The position numbers and the translations under genes are program-made. A model generated the notes under the pieces. It saw nothing but the letters and a program-made list of their open reading frames with translations. It had not been told where the DNA came from and did no database searches. Below are positions 4,851 to 57,139 of a stretch of 64,000 bases of DNA, piece by piece. The DNA comes from Candidatus Dojkabacteria bacterium (GTDB taxonomy: Bacteria > Patescibacteriota > Dojkabacteria > SC72). The stretch lies in NCBI GenBank assembly GCA_050950165.1, contig JBMNHC010000001.1, forward strand, positions 124,673 through 188,672. The letters are read 5' to 3'. The number at the start of each line of letters is the position of its first letter. Position 1 is the stretch's first letter.

Positions 4851-5495
4851 ATGAAATTTGAAGATTTTAAAAGTTTACAAGAAATTCATGAATATTTTGC
4901 TGTTCATAATAGTTGTAAGCTAAAGAAAAGTGCTACCCAACCTGTATATGAGATAAACCCTCCTAAAAAAGGGATTGTCTTCATTGGAGAAGCTCCTGGA
5001 CAAAATGAAGACAAGCAAGGAAAACCTTTTGTTGGTGCAGCAGGAAAACTTCTTAATGAATTACTCGAAGGTTCGGGACTTAAACGAGATGATGTCTATG
5101 TTACGAATACAGTAAAATACAGGCCACCAGCTAACAGAGAGCCTCTACCAGAAGAGAAAGAGGCATGTAGAGTATGGGTTAACTATGAACTGCTTTTCAT
5201 TAAACCAAAAGTTATTATCCCTCTTGGTAGGCATGCACTTGAGAGTTTCATTCCTGGTCTAAAAATCTCCTCTGCTCATGGACAGGTATATGAACATAAA
5301 AGTGGAATTCCCATTTTTGCCATGTATCATCCAGCTGTAGCACTTTACAATCCTACTCTGAAAGCTACCTTGATTGAAGATTTCAAAAGGTTAAAGAGAT
5401 TCCTTCAAGGAAAGATAAAGGTTGTAAAACAAGAAGATGAGGGAGATTTCTCGAAAGAGAAAGAGTCTCTTGTTGATGCTTTGCTAAAGCTTTAA
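4851..5495 (+). CDS. udg: Uracil-DNA glycosylase, family 4.
   Basis: Motifs GEAPGQNEDKQGKPFVGAAGKLL and the C-terminal HPAVALYNP match the family-4 UDG signature. Confidence 0.8.
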   Translation: MKFEDFKSLQEIHEYFAVHNSCKLKKSATQPVYEINPPKKGIVFIGEAPGQNEDKQGKPFVGAAGKLLNELLEGSGLKRDDVYVTNTVKYRPPANREPLPEEKEACRVWVNYELLFIKPKVIIPLGRHALESFIPGLKISSAHGQVYEHKSGIPIFAMYHPAVALYNPTLKATLIEDFKRLKRFLQGKIKVVKQEDEGDFSKEKESLVDALLKL

Positions 5496-6088
5496 TTACT
5501 CCAGCCTACATCATAAAAAATCTTTTCTGCTGCGGTTTCATACTCCATAATCTCTGTTGCGTTAAACCAAAGTCCTATTTCTCTCTCAGCATTTTCTACA
5601 CTATCCGATGCGTGAAGCATAGATCTCGTAACCCTCTTTTGCTCATCTGCCAACGCAAAAGAATCTAGCGAGAAATCGGCTCTAATTGTTCCAACATCAC
5701 CATCTGCAGGACTTGTACTACCAAGCATTTTACGAACACCACTAATAACTCCAAAGCCTTGTAGCACAACAGCAATTACAGGTCCACATGTAAGATAGCT
5801 AATATTAGATTCTCTTACCCATTTACCTCTTGCTAAACTATCCCAATTAGTTACATCCTCTCCTCTTGCGATTGCACCTTTTTTTGCTTTCTCTCCTACC
5901 TCTATCAAATACTCTTTTTTATCCTCATAGTGCTTGCCTACTAGTTCTGGGCTAGGTCTTAACATCTTCATTCCTACAATCTTAAAACCTTTTCTCTCAA
6001 ACCTGCTCACTATCTCACCAACAATCTGTCTCTGGACCACATCTGGCTTGAAAATAACTAACGTCTTCTCTTTATTTTTTGCAAACAT
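5492..6088 (-). CDS. ndk: Nucleoside diphosphate kinase with insertions/extension (198 aa).
   Basis: N-terminal TLVIFKPDVVQR..GEIVSRFERKGFKIVGMK and active-site LHASDSVENAEREIGLWF are present. Confidence 0.85.
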   Translation of the reverse strand: MFAKNKEKTLVIFKPDVVQRQIVGEIVSRFERKGFKIVGMKMLRPSPELVGKHYEDKKEYLIEVGEKAKKGAIARGEDVTNWDSLARGKWVRESNISYLTCGPVIAVVLQGFGVISGVRKMLGSTSPADGDVGTIRADFSLDSFALADEQKRVTRSMLHASDSVENAEREIGLWFNATEIMEYETAAEKIFYDVGWSN

Positions 6089-6162
6089 ATGACTCCTACT
6101 TAATTTATTTACCCATATCTTACAACCTCTCCATTCTAAATGAAACCACTCTCGTTAATAAG

Positions 6163-6443
6163 GTGTGTCCCAGGTATGTCCCCCTGTTTTGCTTGAATAA
6201 GACCATCCTACCACGTTCGTGCGTTGTTTTCTGTTCGGTCTATCCTCAAAAAAACGGTCGGAATCGGGAATAAACTTTGTTGTCCTGCGATTTCGTGGGG
6301 ACAGACCTAGGACAGACCTGCGGTATGGGAATTGGATAAACTTTCGGGAGGGGACAGAGTTGGGACAGACCTGCGATGCGAGGAATCGGGGAAGCGATCG
6401 AAGAGGGACGGACCTGGGACAGACCTGGGGTAGCTGGTATAAT
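6163..6443. promoter_or_regulatory. GC-rich divergent promoter region containing eight GGGACAGACCT-like 11-bp direct-repeat half-sites. Three tandem ~54-bp units sit at 6298-6320, 6351-6373 and 6405-6427. One inverted copy sits at 6163-6185. The array ends in an extended -10 box TGGTATAAT (6435-6443), 5 nt before the elp3 ATG.
   Basis: The repeats were read directly: GGGACAGACCTAGGACAGACCTG, GGGACAGAGTTGGGACAGACCTG and GGGACGGACCTGGGACAGACCTG, with reverse-complement GGGGGACATACCTGGGACACAC upstream of ndk. Local GC is ~50% against ~32% background. Confidence 0.55.
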
Positions 6444-6448
6444 ACGGG

Positions 6449-8047
6449 ATGGATGATTTTAAAAAGATTTTTGGGGAGATAGGGAGGTTGAGGTGTTGGC
6501 GGGAGGAGAGTTTGCAACGGATTTTGAAGCGGTTTCCGAAGGAAGGTAGGGGTTTGTACAGGCATGATGAGTTGGTAGAGGCATATAGGAGGTTGGTTAA
6601 GCAAAATGTGTTGGTGAGAGATGAGGTGGTAGAGAAGCAGATTAGGATGAAGCCGACAAGGACGCTTTCGGGTGTTGCTACGGTAGCGGTGTTGATGAAG
6701 CCGTTTGGGTGTCCTGGGCAGTGCATATTCTGTCCAAATGAGCCGAATATGCCCAAATCATATATTGCTAGCGAGCCAGGAGCTCAAAGAGCTTCAAAAC
6801 ATGGTTTTGATCCTTTTGCTCAGGTATACAACCGTATTAAAGCACTACAAAATATTGGGCATAATACGGATAAGGTGGAGTTAATAATTTTGGGTGGTAC
6901 ATGCTCTGTATATCCAGAACGATATATTGTCTGGTTTGTTAAAAGATGTTTTGATGCGATGAACAGTTTTGGTACATCCCGCTATAACACCGAAGACGAA
7001 GGAATTGAGGCAATAACATGGGAAAAACTTCTTGAAGTCCAAAAAATAAACGAAACAGAAGTTTGTAGAAATGTAGGGGTAGTCTTAGAAACAAGGCCTG
7101 ATTACATAACGGAGGAAGAAGTCAGAAGACTACGAAGACTAGGAGCAACAAAAGTACAGATAGGGATACAAAGCCTCAATAACAAAATACTAAGAGAAAA
7201 TAGGAGGGGGCACACTACTAAAGAAACGAAAGAGGCATTTAAACTGCTTAGATTGGCAGGTTTCAAGATACACGCTCACTGGATGCCTAATCTCTTCGGT
7301 TCTACTGTTAAAAAAGATATAAGGGATTTCAAACGGCTATGGAAAAAAGAGTACCTTCCTGATGAACTAAAAATCTACCCTACTTCGATAATAAAAAATA
7401 CATTACTAGAACAATATTACCAAGATGGTAAATACAAACCATATACAAAAGAAGAGCTACTCTCTCTTTTTGTAAACATACTACCTAAAACTCCAAGATT
7501 TGTTAGGTTAACCAGAATCATTAGAGATATTCCTTCTAATGAGATAGTGGATGGAAATAAACTTACTAACTTCAGAGAGATAGCCGAAAAAGAAATCAAA
7601 AAACTTAATAAAAAGATTCAGGATATTAGAAGCAGAGAGATAAGGGGAGAGAAAATTACATGGAATAATATAGAATTGGAAACTATCAAATACAAAACGA
7701 CAGTATCAACAGAGTACTTCATTTCATACAAAACAAAAGATACAGATAAGATATGTGCTTTCCTAAGACTCTCCATACCAAAAGTTAAACCTTTTATAAA
7801 AGAGATATCGGACTCTACCATGATTAGAGAGGTACATGTATATGGGCCTCTTGTTAATATAGGGGAAGATGGTGGTGGGCAATCACAACATTCAGGGCTA
7901 GGTAAAAGAATGATAGAGATAGCTCAGCAGATATCTTTAGATAGAGGTTTTCAAAAGATGTCAGTAATATCTGCAGTAGGTACTAAGGAGTATTACAGAA
8001 AGAGAGGGTTTAAGGATAATGGTCTTTACATGACCAAAGAAGTCTAG
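6449..8047 (+). CDS. elp3: Elp3-like radical SAM plus GNAT acetyltransferase (tRNA uridine(34) carboxymethyl/acetyltransferase homolog).
   Basis: The radical SAM cluster motif is VAVLMKPFGCPGQCIFCPN. The Elp3-type spacer reads KVELIILGGTCSVYPERY. The C-terminal GNAT reads HSGLGKRMIEIAQQISLDRGFQKMSVISAVGTKEYYRKRGF. Confidence 0.85.
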   Translation: MDDFKKIFGEIGRLRCWREESLQRILKRFPKEGRGLYRHDELVEAYRRLVKQNVLVRDEVVEKQIRMKPTRTLSGVATVAVLMKPFGCPGQCIFCPNEPNMPKSYIASEPGAQRASKHGFDPFAQVYNRIKALQNIGHNTDKVELIILGGTCSVYPERYIVWFVKRCFDAMNSFGTSRYNTEDEGIEAITWEKLLEVQKINETEVCRNVGVVLETRPDYITEEEVRRLRRLGATKVQIGIQSLNNKILRENRRGHTTKETKEAFKLLRLAGFKIHAHWMPNLFGSTVKKDIRDFKRLWKKEYLPDELKIYPTSIIKNTLLEQYYQDGKYKPYTKEELLSLFVNILPKTPRFVRLTRIIRDIPSNEIVDGNKLTNFREIAEKEIKKLNKKIQDIRSREIRGEKITWNNIELETIKYKTTVSTEYFISYKTKDTDKICAFLRLSIPKVKPFIKEISDSTMIREVHVYGPLVNIGEDGGGQSQHSGLGKRMIEIAQQISLDRGFQKMSVISAVGTKEYYRKRGFKDNGLYMTKEV

Positions 8048-8064
8048 AGAATTATAAGGAAATA

Positions 8065-8137
8065 TGGGTGTACAGGGGCTCGAACCCTGAACCTAACGGT
8101 TAAGAGCCGTTTGCTCTACCAGTTGAGCTACACACCC
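8065..8137 (-). tRNA. tRNA-Lys, anticodon CUU, 73 nt, CCA not encoded.
   Basis: The reverse complement is GGGTGTGTAGCTCAACTGGTAGAGCAAACGGCTCTTAACCGTTAGGTTCAGGGTTCGAGCCCCTGTACACCCA. It folds as a cloverleaf with anticodon loop CTCTTAA and T-loop TTCGAGC. Confidence 0.85.
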
Positions 8138-8183
8138 ATTTCAGTTAAGCATAATATCATATAGAAAGGAGATTTTTCAATAC

Positions 8184-48749: not shown

Positions 48750-49877
48750 ATGACTAAGAAACATTTTTTAGTTCCAATATTAGCCATTTTAATATCTGCA
48801 CTATTTCCAATACATACACATGCTGCAGAATTTCATGATGGTAATTACATCTTAGAGGCAGAGACAATAGTAGAAGATGACCTCTATATAGCTGGAGATC
48901 ATGTAATGATCAAAGGGGTTGTAGATGGAGATGTAGTAATATTTGGACAGAATATCTCAGTAGATGGAACTGTTACTGGAGATCTATACATTTTTGGTAA
49001 TTCCATTAGTATAGGTGGTAGTTCATATGGAAATATTACTGCACTAGGATCAAATGTTAGTATAAAGGGTGCAACTGTAGGACAGAATGTCTTTATCCTA
49101 AGTGGTATGACAGATGTAGATGCTAATATCGGTAAAGATTTAAATGTTGCATCTGGTACAACAAAGATACTAGGAAGTATAGGAGATGATGCTAGAATAC
49201 TTTCAGGGCAGGTTTCTTCTGAAGCTACTGTTGGAGGAGATTTCTTACTCTCTAGTGAAAGTCATAATGTAAATAAAGAGAATGTAAAAGGTCAGTTCAT
49301 ACTCTCTACAGAAGCTCACGATAAGTCACTTGATAAAGATTCTAAGTTCCAACTTAGAAGAGGAGAGCTTCTAGGATTTAATTTAGGGATGGCAATTTTA
49401 TCCTTTGTAGGTATGTATATTGTTGGTGTATTACTAATCTATGTAGCTCCAGTAAAGACACTCTACATTGGTAAAAAGGTTACTAGCTCATGGGAAGATC
49501 TACTAAAAAGCTTTGCTATCGGATTATTAACCTTCATAGCAGTCCCGCTTCCACTTCTAATTCTTGTACTAACAATTGTTGGAGCACCATTAGCAATATT
49601 AATAACAGGAATATTAATATTCTTAGCTACTTTCGGAACCCTCTGGACAGAGATAGCTGTAGGACACAAGGTATTAGAGTTAGTTAAGTACAAAGATGAC
49701 TACAGATTCCTCTCTCTACTAGTAGGAAGATTCCTATCCTCTATTATCAAACTGATACCTCTTGTTAACACCTTCTACGGTCTCTCTCTTAGCATGATCT
49801 CTGTAGGAGCTGTAGTAAGAATGAAGTATGACAACTTTAAATCTAGTAAGAAAGCGAAAAGTAAAAAGAGTAAGTAA
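48750..49877 (+). CDS. Secreted protein with a bactofilin-like beta-helix repeat region, a C-terminal 3-4 TM anchor and a Lys-rich tail.
   Basis: A signal peptide is present (..PIHTHA/AE). The repeats VVDGDVVIFGQNISVDGTVTGDLYIFGNSISIGGSSYGNITALGSNVSIKGATVGQNVFI resemble the bactofilin/DUF583 pattern. Hydrophobic helices span 49350-49800. Confidence 0.4.
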   Translation: MTKKHFLVPILAILISALFPIHTHAAEFHDGNYILEAETIVEDDLYIAGDHVMIKGVVDGDVVIFGQNISVDGTVTGDLYIFGNSISIGGSSYGNITALGSNVSIKGATVGQNVFILSGMTDVDANIGKDLNVASGTTKILGSIGDDARILSGQVSSEATVGGDFLLSSESHNVNKENVKGQFILSTEAHDKSLDKDSKFQLRRGELLGFNLGMAILSFVGMYIVGVLLIYVAPVKTLYIGKKVTSSWEDLLKSFAIGLLTFIAVPLPLLILVLTIVGAPLAILITGILIFLATFGTLWTEIAVGHKVLELVKYKDDYRFLSLLVGRFLSSIIKLIPLVNTFYGLSLSMISVGAVVRMKYDNFKSSKKAKSKKSK

Positions 49878-49879
49878 AC

Positions 49880-49912
49880 AAAAAAGGGAGCATTAGCTCC
49901 CTTTCTCTTTTC
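49880..49912. terminator. Bidirectional intrinsic terminator between convergent genes.
   Basis: The sequence is AAAAAAGGGAGC-ATTA-GCTCCCTTTCTCTTTTCT. A 7-bp GC-rich stem is flanked by an A-run upstream and a T-run downstream, so it should work on both strands. Confidence 0.6.
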
Positions 49913-49923
49913 TAGTTCCTTCT

Positions 49924-50673
49924 TTACTTAAGATACTCATCTAGAACCTCAACAAAAGACTCATATGGGTATGCCCCCGCTATTAACTTACCTCTAACAT
50001 TTCCATCCTTATCCAATACACCTACAATGAATCCTGGAGTACCCTGAACACCAGCAGCTGTTCCATCTGTAAAACCTTTATCAACCTGAGCCTTATATTT
50101 AAGAGAGCTCATACATGTTTCTAGCTTACCTATATCTATTCCACCAATATCCTTAGCTACACTAGCTAATTGCTCATTAGATGTTAACATATATGCCTTA
50201 GATATATACTCCGCAAACTTCTCTAGACCCCCTATCTCATTCACACACAGTACTGCATTAGCTGTATCTATAGCTAGCTGACCATGAAAATCTAAAGGAA
50301 AACTCCTAAATACATATATTGCCTTATCCTTATTTACATAGTTATCAATTAATTTACCCTTAACCTCTTGACTATGTCTTTGACAGAAAGAACACTGATA
50401 ATCTGTAAACTCAACAATAGCTACCTTAGCCTTCTTAATATTACCCAAATATGGATCATCTCCAATTACAGTCTCTGCTGCAACAAACTCATCTTGTGCA
50501 ACAGCTCCTTTATTTTCAGGATCTTGTATTTCAGAAGTTTTATCCTTCTTATTCGAAATCAATATTGCTCCTGCTATCAATAAACCCGCTACTATAATAG
50601 CGAAGGGGATAACAAATGAACCTAAATCAATCACTATCTCATCGTTCTTTTCTACTTCCTTGCTTTTTGCCAT
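49924..50673 (-). CDS. DsbA-like thiol:disulfide oxidoreductase with an N-terminal TM anchor.
   Basis: The CxxC motif is FTDYQCSFCQRH. A single N-terminal TM helix is present, and the thioredoxin-fold length fits. Confidence 0.7.
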   Translation of the reverse strand: MAKSKEVEKNDEIVIDLGSFVIPFAIIVAGLLIAGAILISNKKDKTSEIQDPENKGAVAQDEFVAAETVIGDDPYLGNIKKAKVAIVEFTDYQCSFCQRHSQEVKGKLIDNYVNKDKAIYVFRSFPLDFHGQLAIDTANAVLCVNEIGGLEKFAEYISKAYMLTSNEQLASVAKDIGGIDIGKLETCMSSLKYKAQVDKGFTDGTAAGVQGTPGFIVGVLDKDGNVRGKLIAGAYPYESFVEVLDEYLK

Positions 50674-50769: not shown

Positions 50770-51600
50770 ATGAAACAGTACAACAGAAGTGAGAAAAGAA
50801 GCACTATTATAAACCTACTACTATCCATAGCACTTATCTTTGTACTCTTAACTCTTGTATATCTCTCATACAAAATCTTTTTTACAAAAACAGAAACTTC
50901 GGAAGAACAAACAGTAGAAACTTCTGTACAACAGACAGAAGAGATTCCTGAACCTGAAGAGAAATATTTAGAATTCTTTCCGATAATAGAGGGACAACAA
51001 GCATATGTTGGAGTATCAGATAGGATAGATGAAAAGAAACCCCCTACATTAATCATCTATAGCCACGGATCAAATACTACTGTTACACAGAATATGCAAG
51101 ACCCATTCATGCTAGATTTACAAGCATATGGTCAATATTTTACAAAACACAACTATATATTCGCAGCATCTAATCAACATGGAGTAAACTGGGGAAACCA
51201 AGCATCTATAAAAGATACATTACTTCTTAAAGAGTGGGTTGATCAAAACTATTCAATAAAATCGAAGATATATCTAATAGGGTTTAGTATGGGAGGATTA
51301 CCTACAATAAATTTTACAACACAGTATCCCGAACTAGTATCTAAAGTAGCTCTACTTGCTCCTACAACTAAAGTTCCTACTTGGAATCAAGCTAGAGCAG
51401 ATAAAATAATGGATATAGATATAAAGATATGGCATGGGAATGCAGATGTTAATGTCCCATACAACTATACTGCAAACTTTGTAAAAAGATTAAAAACATT
51501 GGGTAAAGAGATACCACTAATCACACTTGAAGGCAAAGGGCACTTTGATATAGATACAGAATATATGGAAGATATTTTAACTTTCTTTGATAGCAAGTAA
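50770..51600 (+). CDS. Alpha/beta hydrolase (esterase/lipase-like) with an N-terminal TM anchor.
   Basis: The GxSxG nucleophile elbow is LIGFSMGGL. HGS...HG motifs are present and the spacing is compatible with a Ser-Asp-His triad. Confidence 0.65.
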   Translation: MKQYNRSEKRSTIINLLLSIALIFVLLTLVYLSYKIFFTKTETSEEQTVETSVQQTEEIPEPEEKYLEFFPIIEGQQAYVGVSDRIDEKKPPTLIIYSHGSNTTVTQNMQDPFMLDLQAYGQYFTKHNYIFAASNQHGVNWGNQASIKDTLLLKEWVDQNYSIKSKIYLIGFSMGGLPTINFTTQYPELVSKVALLAPTTKVPTWNQARADKIMDIDIKIWHGNADVNVPYNYTANFVKRLKTLGKEIPLITLEGKGHFDIDTEYMEDILTFFDSK

Positions 51601-51957
51601 ATCCTCAACCTCATCTAAAGAGAGATTCTTTGAACTATCATATACAGGTACAATATGTGCATGATAGTGAAACACTACCTGACCAGCTGCCTCCCCATTA
51701 TTCTGTCTAATATATATACCATCAGGTTTAAGTATCTCCTTTACTCTCGTAGAAACTATCTTTATTACCTTACCAATATCTCCCATCTCTTTTTCGGATA
51801 TCTCAAAAACATCACTAGAGTGCTTCTTAGGAACTACCAAAATATGACCAGCAGATATTGGATTAATATCTAAAAAAGCTAATACCTTTTTATCCTCATA
51901 TATCTTCTTAGAAGGAACCTCTCCCTCTACTATCTTACAAAAAATACATTCATTCAT
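51577..51957 (-). CDS. HIT family (histidine triad) protein.
   Basis: CIFCKIVEGE..., with the HxHxHxx motif VVFHYHAHIVP. Confidence 0.85.
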   Translation of the reverse strand: MNECIFCKIVEGEVPSKKIYEDKKVLAFLDINPISAGHILVVPKKHSSDVFEISEKEMGDIGKVIKIVSTRVKEILKPDGIYIRQNNGEAAGQVVFHYHAHIVPVYDSSKNLSLDEVEDLLAIKES

Positions 51958-51961
51958 ATTA

Positions 51962-52552
51962 CTAAAGATGATATATTACTACTCTACTCCAAAAAGTTAG
52001 AGTCTCACTATTCGTCTTAAGGTAATCTAAACTAACAAACCCTATCTCTTCTAACCCTTCTTCCTTAATATGTACATCTACTCCATCTAAATCGTAGAGA
52101 TAGAAGAGACCTACATGTACATGATTAACAGGATTACTATCTTCAATATATACTAAACCCAAAAACTCTTTATCAACAATATTTGACCTTAAATCTACCT
52201 CCTCATTCAATTCTCTATCTAGACCAACCTCAAAAATATTTTTACCTTTTACTAAATCAAACTCTTCAATATGACCACCTAATGCTAAAGGACAGAGAGA
52301 ATTTAACCTCTTTTCAGATTTATCTACCTGTTTATGTAAAAAATATTTATCCTTGTACCTCAATATTACTTGAGCAATAATTTGCTTGTAGGAAGGATCT
52401 TCTTCTAGCTCTTTTCTAACTCTAAATTCACTCCCCTCATTTAAAATCTTTACATACTCATCCAGATTCTCACTCTGAAGACCACTCCATTTACCCAAGC
52501 TAAATAGCTTCCCACTACTTATACAAAGTATCTTTTCATCAAGTTTAGCCAT
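51962..52552 (-). CDS. Hypothetical protein with a degenerate Nudix-like box.
   Basis: GGHIEEFDLVKGKNIFEVGLDRELNEEVDL loosely fits Gx5Ex7REUxEExGU. Confidence 0.3.
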   Translation of the reverse strand: MAKLDEKILCISSGKLFSLGKWSGLQSENLDEYVKILNEGSEFRVRKELEEDPSYKQIIAQVILRYKDKYFLHKQVDKSEKRLNSLCPLALGGHIEEFDLVKGKNIFEVGLDRELNEEVDLRSNIVDKEFLGLVYIEDSNPVNHVHVGLFYLYDLDGVDVHIKEEGLEEIGFVSLDYLKTNSETLTFWSRVVIYHL

Positions 52553-52554
52553 AG

Positions 52555-52764
52555 TTATTCCTCTATCTCAATTGCAATTACAGAACATAGATCACGAGCT
52601 TCTAATACCTTAGCTTCTAGTTCTGCAGGAATATCTTTTCCTTTCCACTCCTCCTTTACATCTACTGTGCCATCTTCTTTAAGTTCAAAAACTTCAGGAC
52701 ATATGGCTACACATGAACCACATGCTACACATTTACTTTGATCTATAGATACTTTCATAACCAA
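52555..52764 (-). CDS. Small ferredoxin (single 4Fe-4S/3Fe-4S cluster). The ORF begins at a TTG; the next ATG is at 52758.
   Basis: CVACGSCVAICPE ... DLCSVIAIE, 69 aa. Confidence 0.75.
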   Translation of the reverse strand: MVMKVSIDQSKCVACGSCVAICPEVFELKEDGTVDVKEEWKGKDIPAELEAKVLEARDLCSVIAIEIEE

Positions 52765-52831
52765 AATTATTAACTTAGATATATTTCATTTTTTCAGATA
52801 TTAGAGAATATATCAACCGTTAGGAAATGGA

Positions 52832-53017
52832 GTATGTATCGATACATACCCCATATCAGTGGAAATGCCTTTCACACTGCCTAACAGGTTGTTCGACTAA
52901 AGAAAACGTCTTTTCTTTAGTACTTTGTACTAGCGATCAACTAGTACAAAGGTTCTATTTAGGTCGGTTCAAGAAAAAACCGACCTGTGCTGGCCGGTTG
53001 TAATTCGTCATATGACG
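52832..53017. repeat. Cluster of perfect inverted repeats. An 18-bp palindrome lies at 52832-52849. Three consecutive stem-loops lie at 52896-52921, 52923-52951 and 52961-52986, with 11, 11 and 9 bp stems. A 12-bp palindrome lies at 53006-53017.
   Basis: Read directly: GTATGTATC/GATACATAC; CTAAAGAAAA-cgtc-TTTTCTTTAG; CTTTGTACTAG-cgatcaa-CTAGTACAAAG; AGGTCGGTT-caagaaaa-AACCGACCT; CGTCATATGACG. None carries a flanking U-tract. Confidence 0.5.
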
Positions 53018-53070
53018 CAAGGCGTTGTTGCTATACCCATTTATACCAAATTTTACTCTTTTTATCAACT

Positions 53071-53490
53071 TTAACTCCTAAACCTCACCAACCCTCTCTC
53101 TCCAACAATATCAAAGCCAAACTCTTCAGCAAGATCAGTAAGTAAGATACCTGAAGATGCTAACATCTCAGATGGCTTAGTTCCTCCATCTAACGCTTCT
53201 TTAACTTCAATAGCTGGAATCCCTAAGGTAATACTTAGCATATTAGCCATTTTAAACCCTTCCTCTTCAACTTCTACATATTCATCTCTTACCCTTAACG
53301 AATCTTCTAAATTAAACTCTTCACCTAAGAAAGACTCAGAAGAAATATATTCAGAAAAGATTGCAGAAGGGGCATCATTAGAAAACTTTAATGGGTTAAT
53401 AGCAGTAAAAAGCGCAAACCCAAAAACCGAAACGAAGATAGAAAGGATAATAACTCTCTCTTTGTTTGTCATATTAAATATACATGACAA
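53071..53490 (-). CDS. Hypothetical membrane-anchored acidic protein.
   Basis: ORF with one N-terminal TM helix and no recognisable motif. Confidence 0.35.
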   Translation of the reverse strand: MSCIFNMTNKERVIILSIFVSVFGFALFTAINPLKFSNDAPSAIFSEYISSESFLGEEFNLEDSLRVRDEYVEVEEEGFKMANMLSITLGIPAIEVKEALDGGTKPSEMLASSGILLTDLAEEFGFDIVGERGLVRFRS

Positions 53491-57062: not shown

Positions 57063-57139
57063 TGGTCGGGGTGACACGACTTGAACGTGCGACCTCTTGC
57101 ACCCCATGCAAGCGTTCTAGCCATCTGAACTACACCCCG
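57063..57139 (-). tRNA. tRNA-Pro, anticodon GGG, 77 nt with encoded 3' CCA.
   Basis: The reverse complement is CGGGGTGTAGTTCAGATGGCTAGAACGCTTGCATGGGGTGCAAGAGGTCGCACGTTCAAGTCGTGTCACCCCGACCA. It folds as a cloverleaf with a 7/7 acceptor, anticodon loop ATGGGGT and T-loop TTCAAGT. Confidence 0.85.

Follow-up and report, generated by a model that had tools for sequence, protein, structure and literature searches.

We analysed a stretch of 64,000 nucleotides from a Candidatus Dojkabacteria genome (positions 124,673 to 188,672 of contig JBMNHC010000001.1; hereafter the window), focusing on a cluster of stem-loops at 52832-53017, which lies between two minus-strand genes encoding a hypothetical protein (53071-53490) and a ferredoxin (52555-52764). 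Comparative sequence evidence indicates that a structured non-coding RNA of ~215 nt is encoded here by a gene present in one copy, with its own near-consensus promoter-like site of the extended -10 sigma-70 type. The RNA is predicted to span ~52817-53034, or up to 53068 with its promoter, and so exceeds the block that an earlier note on this DNA had marked out. Judging from the searches reported below, it is a new and previously uncatalogued RNA family, which we file as a lineage-specific structured regulatory RNA.

Structure of the block

The earlier note described palindromes and perfect stems, and all of these were located. Sequence reading and a repeat finder placed the 18-bp palindrome GTATGTATCGATACATAC at 52832-52849, between GGAAATGG and GGAAATGC. 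The repeat finder also recovered two perfect 11-bp stems (52896-52906/52911-52921 and 52923-52933/52941-52951) and a perfect 9-bp stem (52961-52969/52978-52986), and the 12-bp palindrome CGTCATATGACG is present at 53006-53017. The block is richer in GC than its surroundings, as had been described (0.39-0.44 versus 0.25-0.37).

The whole window has 27 short-range inverted repeats, and this ~190 bp accounts for three of them. The minimum free energy of the minus strand is -93.5 kcal/mol (z = -8.1), a value equalled by none of 100 shuffled sequences, and the plus strand has a folding z of -5.3. We also scanned GC-adjusted folding energy along both strands of the window in segments of 220 nt. The minus-strand segment 52801-53020 ranked first among the 2,320 segments, with an energy of -82 against a mean of -35.8 (standard deviation 9.8) and a GC-adjusted z of -4.5. 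The structure of the block is far beyond chance.

Conservation and covariation among homologues

A scan of a genome collection gave 24 Dojkabacteria loci. The hairpin-D motif, when used to scan metagenomes, led to a further set of 11 loci, all with the same gene neighbourhood. From 23 sequences we constructed a covariance model (R1), which was then run over all collected loci. The final family comprises 27 homologues, of which 26 are distinct, and these were aligned using MAFFT without fitting to the structure (alignment A4). The gene order hypothetical - spacer - ferredoxin - NUDIX-like is conserved among the Dojkabacteria loci, with a spacer of ~300 nt in 13 loci and of only 60-150 nt in six. 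The long spacers align end to end, through the promoter, GCCUUG, hairpin A, AAUUAnAACCGGCCA, hairpin B with its U run, a linker, hairpins C and D, and junction E (Table 1).

RNAalifold predicted 49 pairs, 16 of them with compensatory changes. Across the 27 sequences of the structure-independent alignment, standard pairing is found in 99.4% of cells and both sides change in 24 of the 52 pairs, values that none of 500 shuffles matched. Sliding the partner by 1-3 columns, as a control, lowered pairing to 34-51%. All seven helices contain at least one compensatory pair. There are 73 G.U or U.G combinations and five A.C or C.A combinations, and the consensus fold energy is -55.4 on the minus strand versus -45.7 on the opposite strand. 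This asymmetry, the consensus fold energy and the orientation of the promoter agree, which places the RNA on the minus strand. On this evidence we regard a conserved RNA structure on the minus strand as almost certain. Identity to the window copy is 73-90% for the RNA, 69-81% for the adjacent coding sequences and 52-68% for synonymous third positions. By these comparisons, the predicted RNA is under purifying selection.

The earlier note had listed several possibilities for the block. A small or structured non-coding RNA is the one that these results bear out, in the form of a conserved, covarying RNA with its own promoter-like site. The note had also considered an array of operators or other protein-binding DNA sites, which does not fit stems that covary rather than keep their sequence, or the excess of G.U over A.C. 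REP-like (repetitive extragenic palindromic) dispersed elements, another suggestion, are refuted. Each hairpin is unique within the window, the covariance model matched every RNA-bearing locus once and nothing else in ~500 kb of Dojkabacteria sequence, and the metagenome matches all share one neighbourhood. No further copies were found with filters off in the window, in relatives that lack the RNA or in distant Dojkabacteria (4-16 kb per locus).

More broadly, a feature acting at the DNA level, whether an operator or palindrome array, a REP-like repeat or a mobile miniature element, would account for perfect palindromes in an intergenic region beside a promoter and for presence and absence that vary among close relatives. 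It is contradicted by the covarying stems, by the G.U over A.C asymmetry and by a single copy with no dispersion. Locus comparisons revealed no terminal repeats or target duplications at the RNA boundaries, and the empty sites are deletion scars rather than clean targets. A blastn search of phage and plasmid collections gave no match. Of two conserved motifs searched against viral contigs, one had no match and the other had three chance matches in G+C-rich genomes. We consider a DNA-level feature extremely improbable.

Next to no weight falls on a type I toxin-antitoxin pair or on a small protein encoded on the plus strand by the 58-aa open reading frame (ORF) at 52827-53003. The antisense frame over C-D-E is open in most homologues, but its start codon and N-terminal frame are not conserved, its end points vary, it is missing in three of 23 sequences, and there is a frameshift in E2 between the window and locus L001. 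The peptide has no Pfam match and is not hydrophobic, and substitutions in the stems are compensatory rather than synonymous. The 58-aa frame appears to be a by-product of conserved, stop-free palindromic sequence.

Parts of the RNA

The promoter-like site begins 2 nt past the stop codon of the upstream gene. Its form TTGATA-N17-TGnTATAaT is conserved among the homologues (alignment A1), and the copy at locus L085 scores 10/12 with the TG. Transcription is predicted to start at ~53032-53034. Near the 5' end, the GCCUUG stretch is invariant across the long spacers, and a search for long-range pairings found no covarying partner for the segment AACGCCUUG. Hairpin A is maintained by compensatory change (CGUC/GACG, CGUU/AACG, CAUUUC/GAAAUG), with covariation in two of its four pairs. 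Between hairpins A and B, the stretch AAUUAnAACCGGCCA is invariant. The 3' arm of hairpin B is GGUCGGUU or GCCGGUU across the homologues, and one of its pairs alternates between G.U and G-C. The alternative hairpin B' has one arm in common with B, and the two are mutually exclusive.

A variable linker separates the U run from hairpin C, in which four of ten pairs show compensatory change (e.g., GUAC to CUGU/ACAG in L093 and GUGUUAG/CUAACAC in L095). Hairpin D is near-invariant. Two of its 11 pairs are compensatory (CUGAAG/CUUCAG in L024 and a terminal A-U to U-A in one other sequence), and one pair varies between G.U, A-U and G-C. In junction E, 15 of 20 pairs show compensatory changes (helices 5-7). 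In each of the three genomic contexts in which the RNA is found, the last conserved position coincides with the 3' end of the outer stem of E.

Table 1. Predicted parts of the RNA and neighbouring features in the window, in the order of transcription
Feature	Position	Strand	Description
Upstream gene	53071..53490	-	139-aa conserved hypothetical protein, membrane-anchored, no Pfam match
RNA promoter (predicted)	53040..53068	-	-35 TTGATA 53068-53063; 17-nt spacer; extended -10 TGgTATAAA 53048-53040
5' single-stranded segment	53018..53026	-	Conserved AACGCCUUG; GCCUU nearly invariant (alignments A1, A2, A4)
Hairpin A	53006..53017	-	CGUC-AUAU-GACG; the 12-bp palindrome of the earlier note
Linker and hairpin B	52978..53005	-	Invariant linker AAUUAnA; B is AACCGGCC-loop-GGUCGGUU, 52999-52978
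U-tract	52971..52979	-	UUUUUUCUU, directly after and partly within the 3' arm of B; GGUUUUUUGUU nearly invariant family-wide
Alternative hairpin B'	52961..52986	-	AGGUCGGUU/AACCGACCU; the 9-bp hairpin of the earlier note
Hairpin C	52923..52951	-	11-bp stem; conserved loop U(G/U)GAUCG
Hairpin D	52896..52921	-	11-bp stem; invariant GACG loop; 1 nt after C
Three-way junction E	52817..52887	-	Outer stem 52880-52887 with 52817-52824
Arm E1 of junction E	52857-52879	-	Bulged U; GNNA/GNRA-type tetraloop
Arm E2 of junction E	52827-52854	-	Contains the 18-bp palindrome of the earlier note
Promoter-like site of the ferredoxin gene	52788..52816	-	TTGATA-17-TGaAAAAAT; abuts the 3' end of the RNA and lies outside it
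4Fe-4S ferredoxin gene, downstream	52555..52764	-	Heads the ferredoxin - NUDIX-like - HIT cluster
NUDIX-like and HIT genes after ferredoxin	51577-52552	-	196 aa, weakly NUDIX-like; HIT-family, DcpS_C-like

A terminator-like hairpin inside the RNA

According to the earlier note, none of the hairpins is followed by a U-tract and they are not simple intrinsic terminators. This holds only for the hairpins that it drew; hairpin B (AACCGGCC/GGTCGGTT, 52999-52978), which is followed by U6, had been overlooked. An intrinsic terminator is marked, on the transcribed strand, by a G+C-rich stem of at least 5 bp with a loop of 3-8 nt and at least five U within the 8 nt after the stem. Hairpin B has this shape, with eight pairs (five of them G-C), a loop of 6 and the tail UUUUCUUGAA, and a scan scored B with its U-tract as terminator-like both in the window and in L024. 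B is present in all copies, and its folding energy lies between -11 and -18 kcal/mol in every one of 23 sequences. The scan found no terminator-like site after E in the window, L024 or L085. We lean towards hairpin B functioning as a terminator or attenuator.

Hairpin B', the 9-bp hairpin that the earlier note had drawn, is the least conserved helix. Of 23 sequences, the 12 in which it is stable (-12 to -16 kcal/mol) all have the 3' arm GGUCGG; it is weak or absent in the 11 sequences with a GCCGG arm. The sequences with the GGUCGG arm have a G.U pair in B, so that B' equals or exceeds B in strength in most of them.

An alternative reading is that the locus holds two separate units, a base-pairing small RNA (sRNA) of ~60 nt (promoter, seed AACGCCUUG, A and B) and an independent cis element C-D-E. 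The A-B part has canonical sRNA architecture, B has a good terminator shape, and the weak likenesses in Rfam are only to terminator-bearing sRNAs (Hrs13, E = 0.36). A promoter and a terminator-like hairpin of its own, as expected of a base-pairing sRNA, are found for the ~60-nt form only. Against a division into two units, no conserved promoter-like motif lies between B and C (alignments A1 and A2), and the parts always co-occur, move together (L024 and L085) and are lost together. The window also holds no target complement of the seed: at translation starts, we found no complement of AACGCCUUG or AAUUACAA, and only the RNA gene itself was matched. We regard two separate units as very unlikely.

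We give similarly little credence to purely passive structures, in which B would close the upstream gene and C, D and E would be stabilising hairpins or RNase III-type processing sites, providing insulation only. The hypothetical gene is without another terminator, and B would end its read-through; furthermore, C and D are perfect 11-bp stems 1 nt apart, which could stack into a helix of ~22 bp. However, passive structures would not need a conserved promoter of their own, nor invariant loops and linkers, a three-way junction with a tetraloop arm, or conservation above that of the neighbouring genes, and relatives manage without them.

Elsewhere in the window, a hairpin with a G+C core (AAACAAAAAAGGGAGC / GCTCCCTTTCTCTTTT) and A and T runs on both sides is located at 49876-49911, just downstream of a DsbA-like gene (49924-50673, minus strand). 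It resembles a bidirectional intrinsic terminator, which suggests that intrinsic terminators are in use in this genome.

Genomic contexts and repeated loss

The RNA is found only in one subgroup of Dojkabacteria, as far as the collected loci indicate. It lies upstream of, and co-oriented with, a ferredoxin-containing operon in three arrangements, and every copy is at most 3.5 kb upstream of ferredoxin. In most loci the RNA is directly before ferredoxin. The order in L024 is RNA - Fe/Mn superoxide dismutase-like (SOD) - ferredoxin - NUDIX-like, with a convergent gene upstream. The order in L085 is RNA - 60-aa ORF - ABC exporter - cytochrome b5-like - ferredoxin - HIT, with a different upstream gene. 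The upstream neighbour therefore varies among the three arrangements, and the RNA keeps its own promoter-like site in each.

Redox-related genes are inserted between the RNA and ferredoxin in two lineages (L024 3130-3723 and L085 2902-5778), and in distant Dojkabacteria, which have no RNA, a gene with a cytochrome b5 domain is directly before ferredoxin. The NUDIX-like protein of the window is 100% identical to a protein from a genome of Candidatus Dojkabacteria (WS6, Candidate Phyla Radiation (CPR)). A separate look-up of its exact sequence returned no record. Both the NUDIX-like and HIT families include nucleotide or RNA-cap hydrolases, and L085 is without the NUDIX-like gene. A functional tie between these genes and the RNA upstream of them would be pure speculation.

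Some relatives lack the RNA at the syntenic locus, and these empty sites arose by deletion and are not the ancestral state. RNA-less L019 has flanks nearly identical to those of RNA-bearing L084, and RNA-less L015 retains remnants of the promoter spacer, AAUUACAA and the outer stem of E. The relatives with deletion scars are L015 (3679-3792), L019 (3713-3792), L014 (398-468), L008, L011, L006/L096-L098 and L109-L112. When the NUDIX-like protein is placed on a neighbour-joining tree, genomes with the RNA are spread across the entire clade and the empty ones are nested at no fewer than six separate places. The remnants and the nested positions of the empty genomes imply that the RNA is ancestral to the subclade and was deleted independently at least six times. 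By these comparisons the RNA is strongly constrained where present, yet dispensable.

Possible functions

We tentatively interpret the element as an attenuator-type regulatory RNA, or 5' leader, of the ferredoxin redox operon, specific to this lineage, a reading that we place somewhat short of an even chance. The RNA would be transcribed from its own promoter just after the stop codon of the upstream gene, and hairpin B, ~60 nt into the transcript, would stop transcription either leakily or under certain conditions. Transcripts stopping at B would yield a short RNA of ~60 nt with a 5' seed, hairpin A and a terminator, which is the classic anatomy of an sRNA. Read-through transcripts would carry C, D and E and continue into the co-oriented ferredoxin/redox operon. 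In the long form, B' could re-pair the 3' arm of B in approximately half of the family, freeing the invariant AAUUAnAACCGGCC. The element would insulate the upstream gene from the ferredoxin operon by closing the upstream transcript, and would feed a second, regulated transcript into the operon.

Two observations lead to this scheme. The conservation of C-D-E by covariation implies that it is transcribed, and hence that some polymerases read through B. Because no terminator follows E, read-through would continue into the redox operon. The position expected of a riboswitch or cis-acting leader, upstream and co-oriented, recurs in three contexts, which are not independent. In the RNA-less relatives, inspection by eye rather than by a formal scan revealed no terminator-like hairpin in the 60-150-nt spacer. 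A cis effect of the long form on the operon that follows it is possible but doubtful.

Several points weigh against an attenuator or leader. Promoter activity, the start site, termination at B and read-through are all predicted from sequence. The operon does not need the element because ferredoxin has its own promoter-like site, even in RNA-less relatives. This site (TTGATA/TTGCAA-17-TGaAAAAAT), which recurs in loci L001-L024, is kept in those relatives and also stands before ferredoxin in L024. A terminator 5' of the main structured domain inverts, to our knowledge, the order of parts in all known riboswitches and attenuators. The search for an anti-terminator gave no candidate with support: pairing of GCCUUG with CAA..GGC was predicted in nascent-RNA folds of two of three representatives and does not covary (alignment A4). 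No Shine-Dalgarno-like site was seen in the ferredoxin leaders, which were read by eye and not formally scanned. In addition, the three contexts are not independent, as ferredoxin is nearby in all of them, and with at least six independent deletions the element is dispensable.

The main rival is a stand-alone, trans-acting RNA of ~215 nt, which would bind a protein or another RNA and so serve as a sponge, scaffold or guide, and whose 3' end would be produced when the transcript is processed at the foot of the long outer stem of E. Hairpin B would then be no more than a structural helix or a place of weak pausing, and the linkage to ferredoxin mere synteny. This alternative accords with a strong promoter of its own and with conservation that runs from the promoter to the exact end of E in three contexts. 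It also accords with the invariant loops and linkers (GACG in D, GAUC in C, and AAUUAnAACCGGCCA) and with the GNRA-type tetraloop of E1; arms with such tetraloops are typical of RNAs that are tertiary-structured or protein-bound. The separate promoter-like site of ferredoxin and the repeated clean loss, which left the operon undisturbed, point the same way. However, E is not followed by a terminator although the genome has intrinsic-terminator-like hairpins (e.g., 49876-49911), and the sole terminator-like hairpin lies within the RNA. The neighbourhood shows no obvious partner gene, and all copies are within 3.5 kb upstream of ferredoxin and co-oriented with it. On balance, we regard a stand-alone RNA as somewhat unlikely.

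Returning to a regulatory leader, the downstream C-D-E domain could be a new class of CPR switch that senses a redox or metal signal, or binds a dedicated protein, and controls the ferredoxin/SOD/cytochrome b5 operon. Control would be exerted through bistable pairing of B and B', or by acting back on the termination of further transcripts. We think such a switch quite unlikely. The RNA could equally be a new protein-sequestering RNA.

Searches for known RNA families

The earlier note had proposed a search of Rfam with Infernal and an inspection of covariation in relatives. Both were carried out: no family was assigned, and 24 of 52 pairs proved compensatory, as described above. No match to the region was found among the 4,227 families of Rfam 15 at gathering thresholds, and permissive searches with the window copy and two divergent homologues gave only inconsistent matches (E >= 0.09). 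There is no tRNA or tmRNA at the block, as the only tRNAs that ARAGORN detected are at 8064-8138 and 57063-57139. In the literature library searched, both by topic and by sequence string, we found no description of this RNA and no paper describing a lineage-specific non-coding RNA in CPR bacteria.

Likenesses to known motifs were considered and rejected. ANTAR substrates consist of two adjacent short hairpins whose hexaloops have A at position 1 and G at position 4. The loops U(G/U)GAUCG and GACG and the 11-bp stems do not fit this description. Resemblances to RNase P CR-V, signal recognition particle helix 8, 6S RNA, the 11-nt tetraloop receptor and the hammerhead core were dropped, as the RNA has none of their other defining motifs and Rfam gave no match. 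A riboswitch has its sensor before, and overlapping, the expression platform. In this RNA B is 5' of C-D-E, E stops before the ferredoxin promoter-like site, and there is no overlap with a ribosome-binding site. The search for long-range or pseudoknot pairings gave only short, G.U-rich candidates that do not covary and are unconvincing, such as GAUCG in the loop of C with CGGUU in B, and GACG in the loop of D with the 5' arm of hairpin A.

Other features of the window

An intergenic region of 360 nt at 6089-6448 is G+C-rich (~0.50) and contains three units of ~54 nt, each ending in a doubled GGGACAGACCTG (6298-6325, 6351-6378 and 6405-6432). The plus-strand segment 6161-6380 was the fourth strongest of the folding scan (-78.8 kcal/mol) and had no Rfam match at E <= 1. 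From reading by eye, we take the flanking genes to be one resembling nucleoside diphosphate kinase (5492-6088, minus strand) and one of the ELP3-type radical-SAM kind (6449-8047, plus strand, 532 aa). The repeats could be a binding-site array or another uncatalogued RNA.

The ARAGORN prediction at 57063-57139 (minus strand) is a tRNA-Pro(GGG), whose sequence on reading forms a canonical cloverleaf and includes the CCA end. When the whole window was searched at Rfam gathering thresholds, the single tRNA reported was that at 8065-8137. The tRNA at 57063-57139 was probably missed by the fast filters of that search.

Comparison with known systems

CPR bacteria have tiny genomes with very little non-coding DNA. 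A conserved, covarying RNA gene of 250 bp beside the ferredoxin/SOD redox genes of anaerobic Dojkabacteria is a testable candidate for RNA-based regulation, and its repeated loss provides natural knock-outs for comparison.

The predicted layout resembles REP/BIME (bacterial interspersed mosaic element) repeats in that stable hairpins are clustered between co-directional genes. It differs from them in its single, undispersed copy, its own promoter-like site, its covarying stems and its three-way junction.

In its proposed mode of action, the element is most like two kinds of system: intrinsic-terminator attenuators and conditional terminators in 5' leaders (of the riboswitch or the protein-dependent antitermination type), and sRNAs with short and long isoforms. 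Like the attenuators, the element has a promoter-like site, a short leader, a G+C-rich hairpin with a U-tract and a co-oriented operon downstream, and one arm of the terminator-like hairpin is also used by a competitor, B', in half of the family. Unlike in these attenuators, the large structured domain is downstream of the terminator-like hairpin and the operon retains a promoter-like site of its own. B' cannot decide termination co-transcriptionally because its competing arm is transcribed after the U-tract, and in this RNA we found neither an anti-terminator that covaries nor a ligand pocket or leader peptide. Should an arrangement in which the sensor follows the terminator be functional, the known attenuators would gain an unusual design.

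EutX/Rli55 (Enterococcus/Listeria), SreA and rnTrpL are examples of sRNAs that contain riboswitches or derive from attenuators, with short and long isoforms. The proposed combination of a terminated short RNA and a read-through long RNA, as well as the tandem pair of hairpins, is similar to these systems. In contrast to them, no known aptamer was recognised by Rfam, no ANTAR or partner gene is nearby, and neither the loop of C (5-7 nt, GAUC) nor that of D (4 nt, GACG) fits the two-hexaloop substrate of ANTAR proteins.

The element also resembles the orphan non-coding RNAs of the Weinberg/Breaker type (e.g., PMC5737381), which comparative genomics has brought to light in G+C-rich intergenic regions of A+T-rich genomes. 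These are likewise G+C-enriched, covarying, multi-helix intergenic RNAs with invariant loops that are confined to one lineage. It is distinguished from these by its CPR host and its internal terminator-like hairpin, and it corresponds to none of the 4,227 Rfam 15 families. If the unusual layout is not functional, the RNA would be one more orphan structured RNA for this catalogue.

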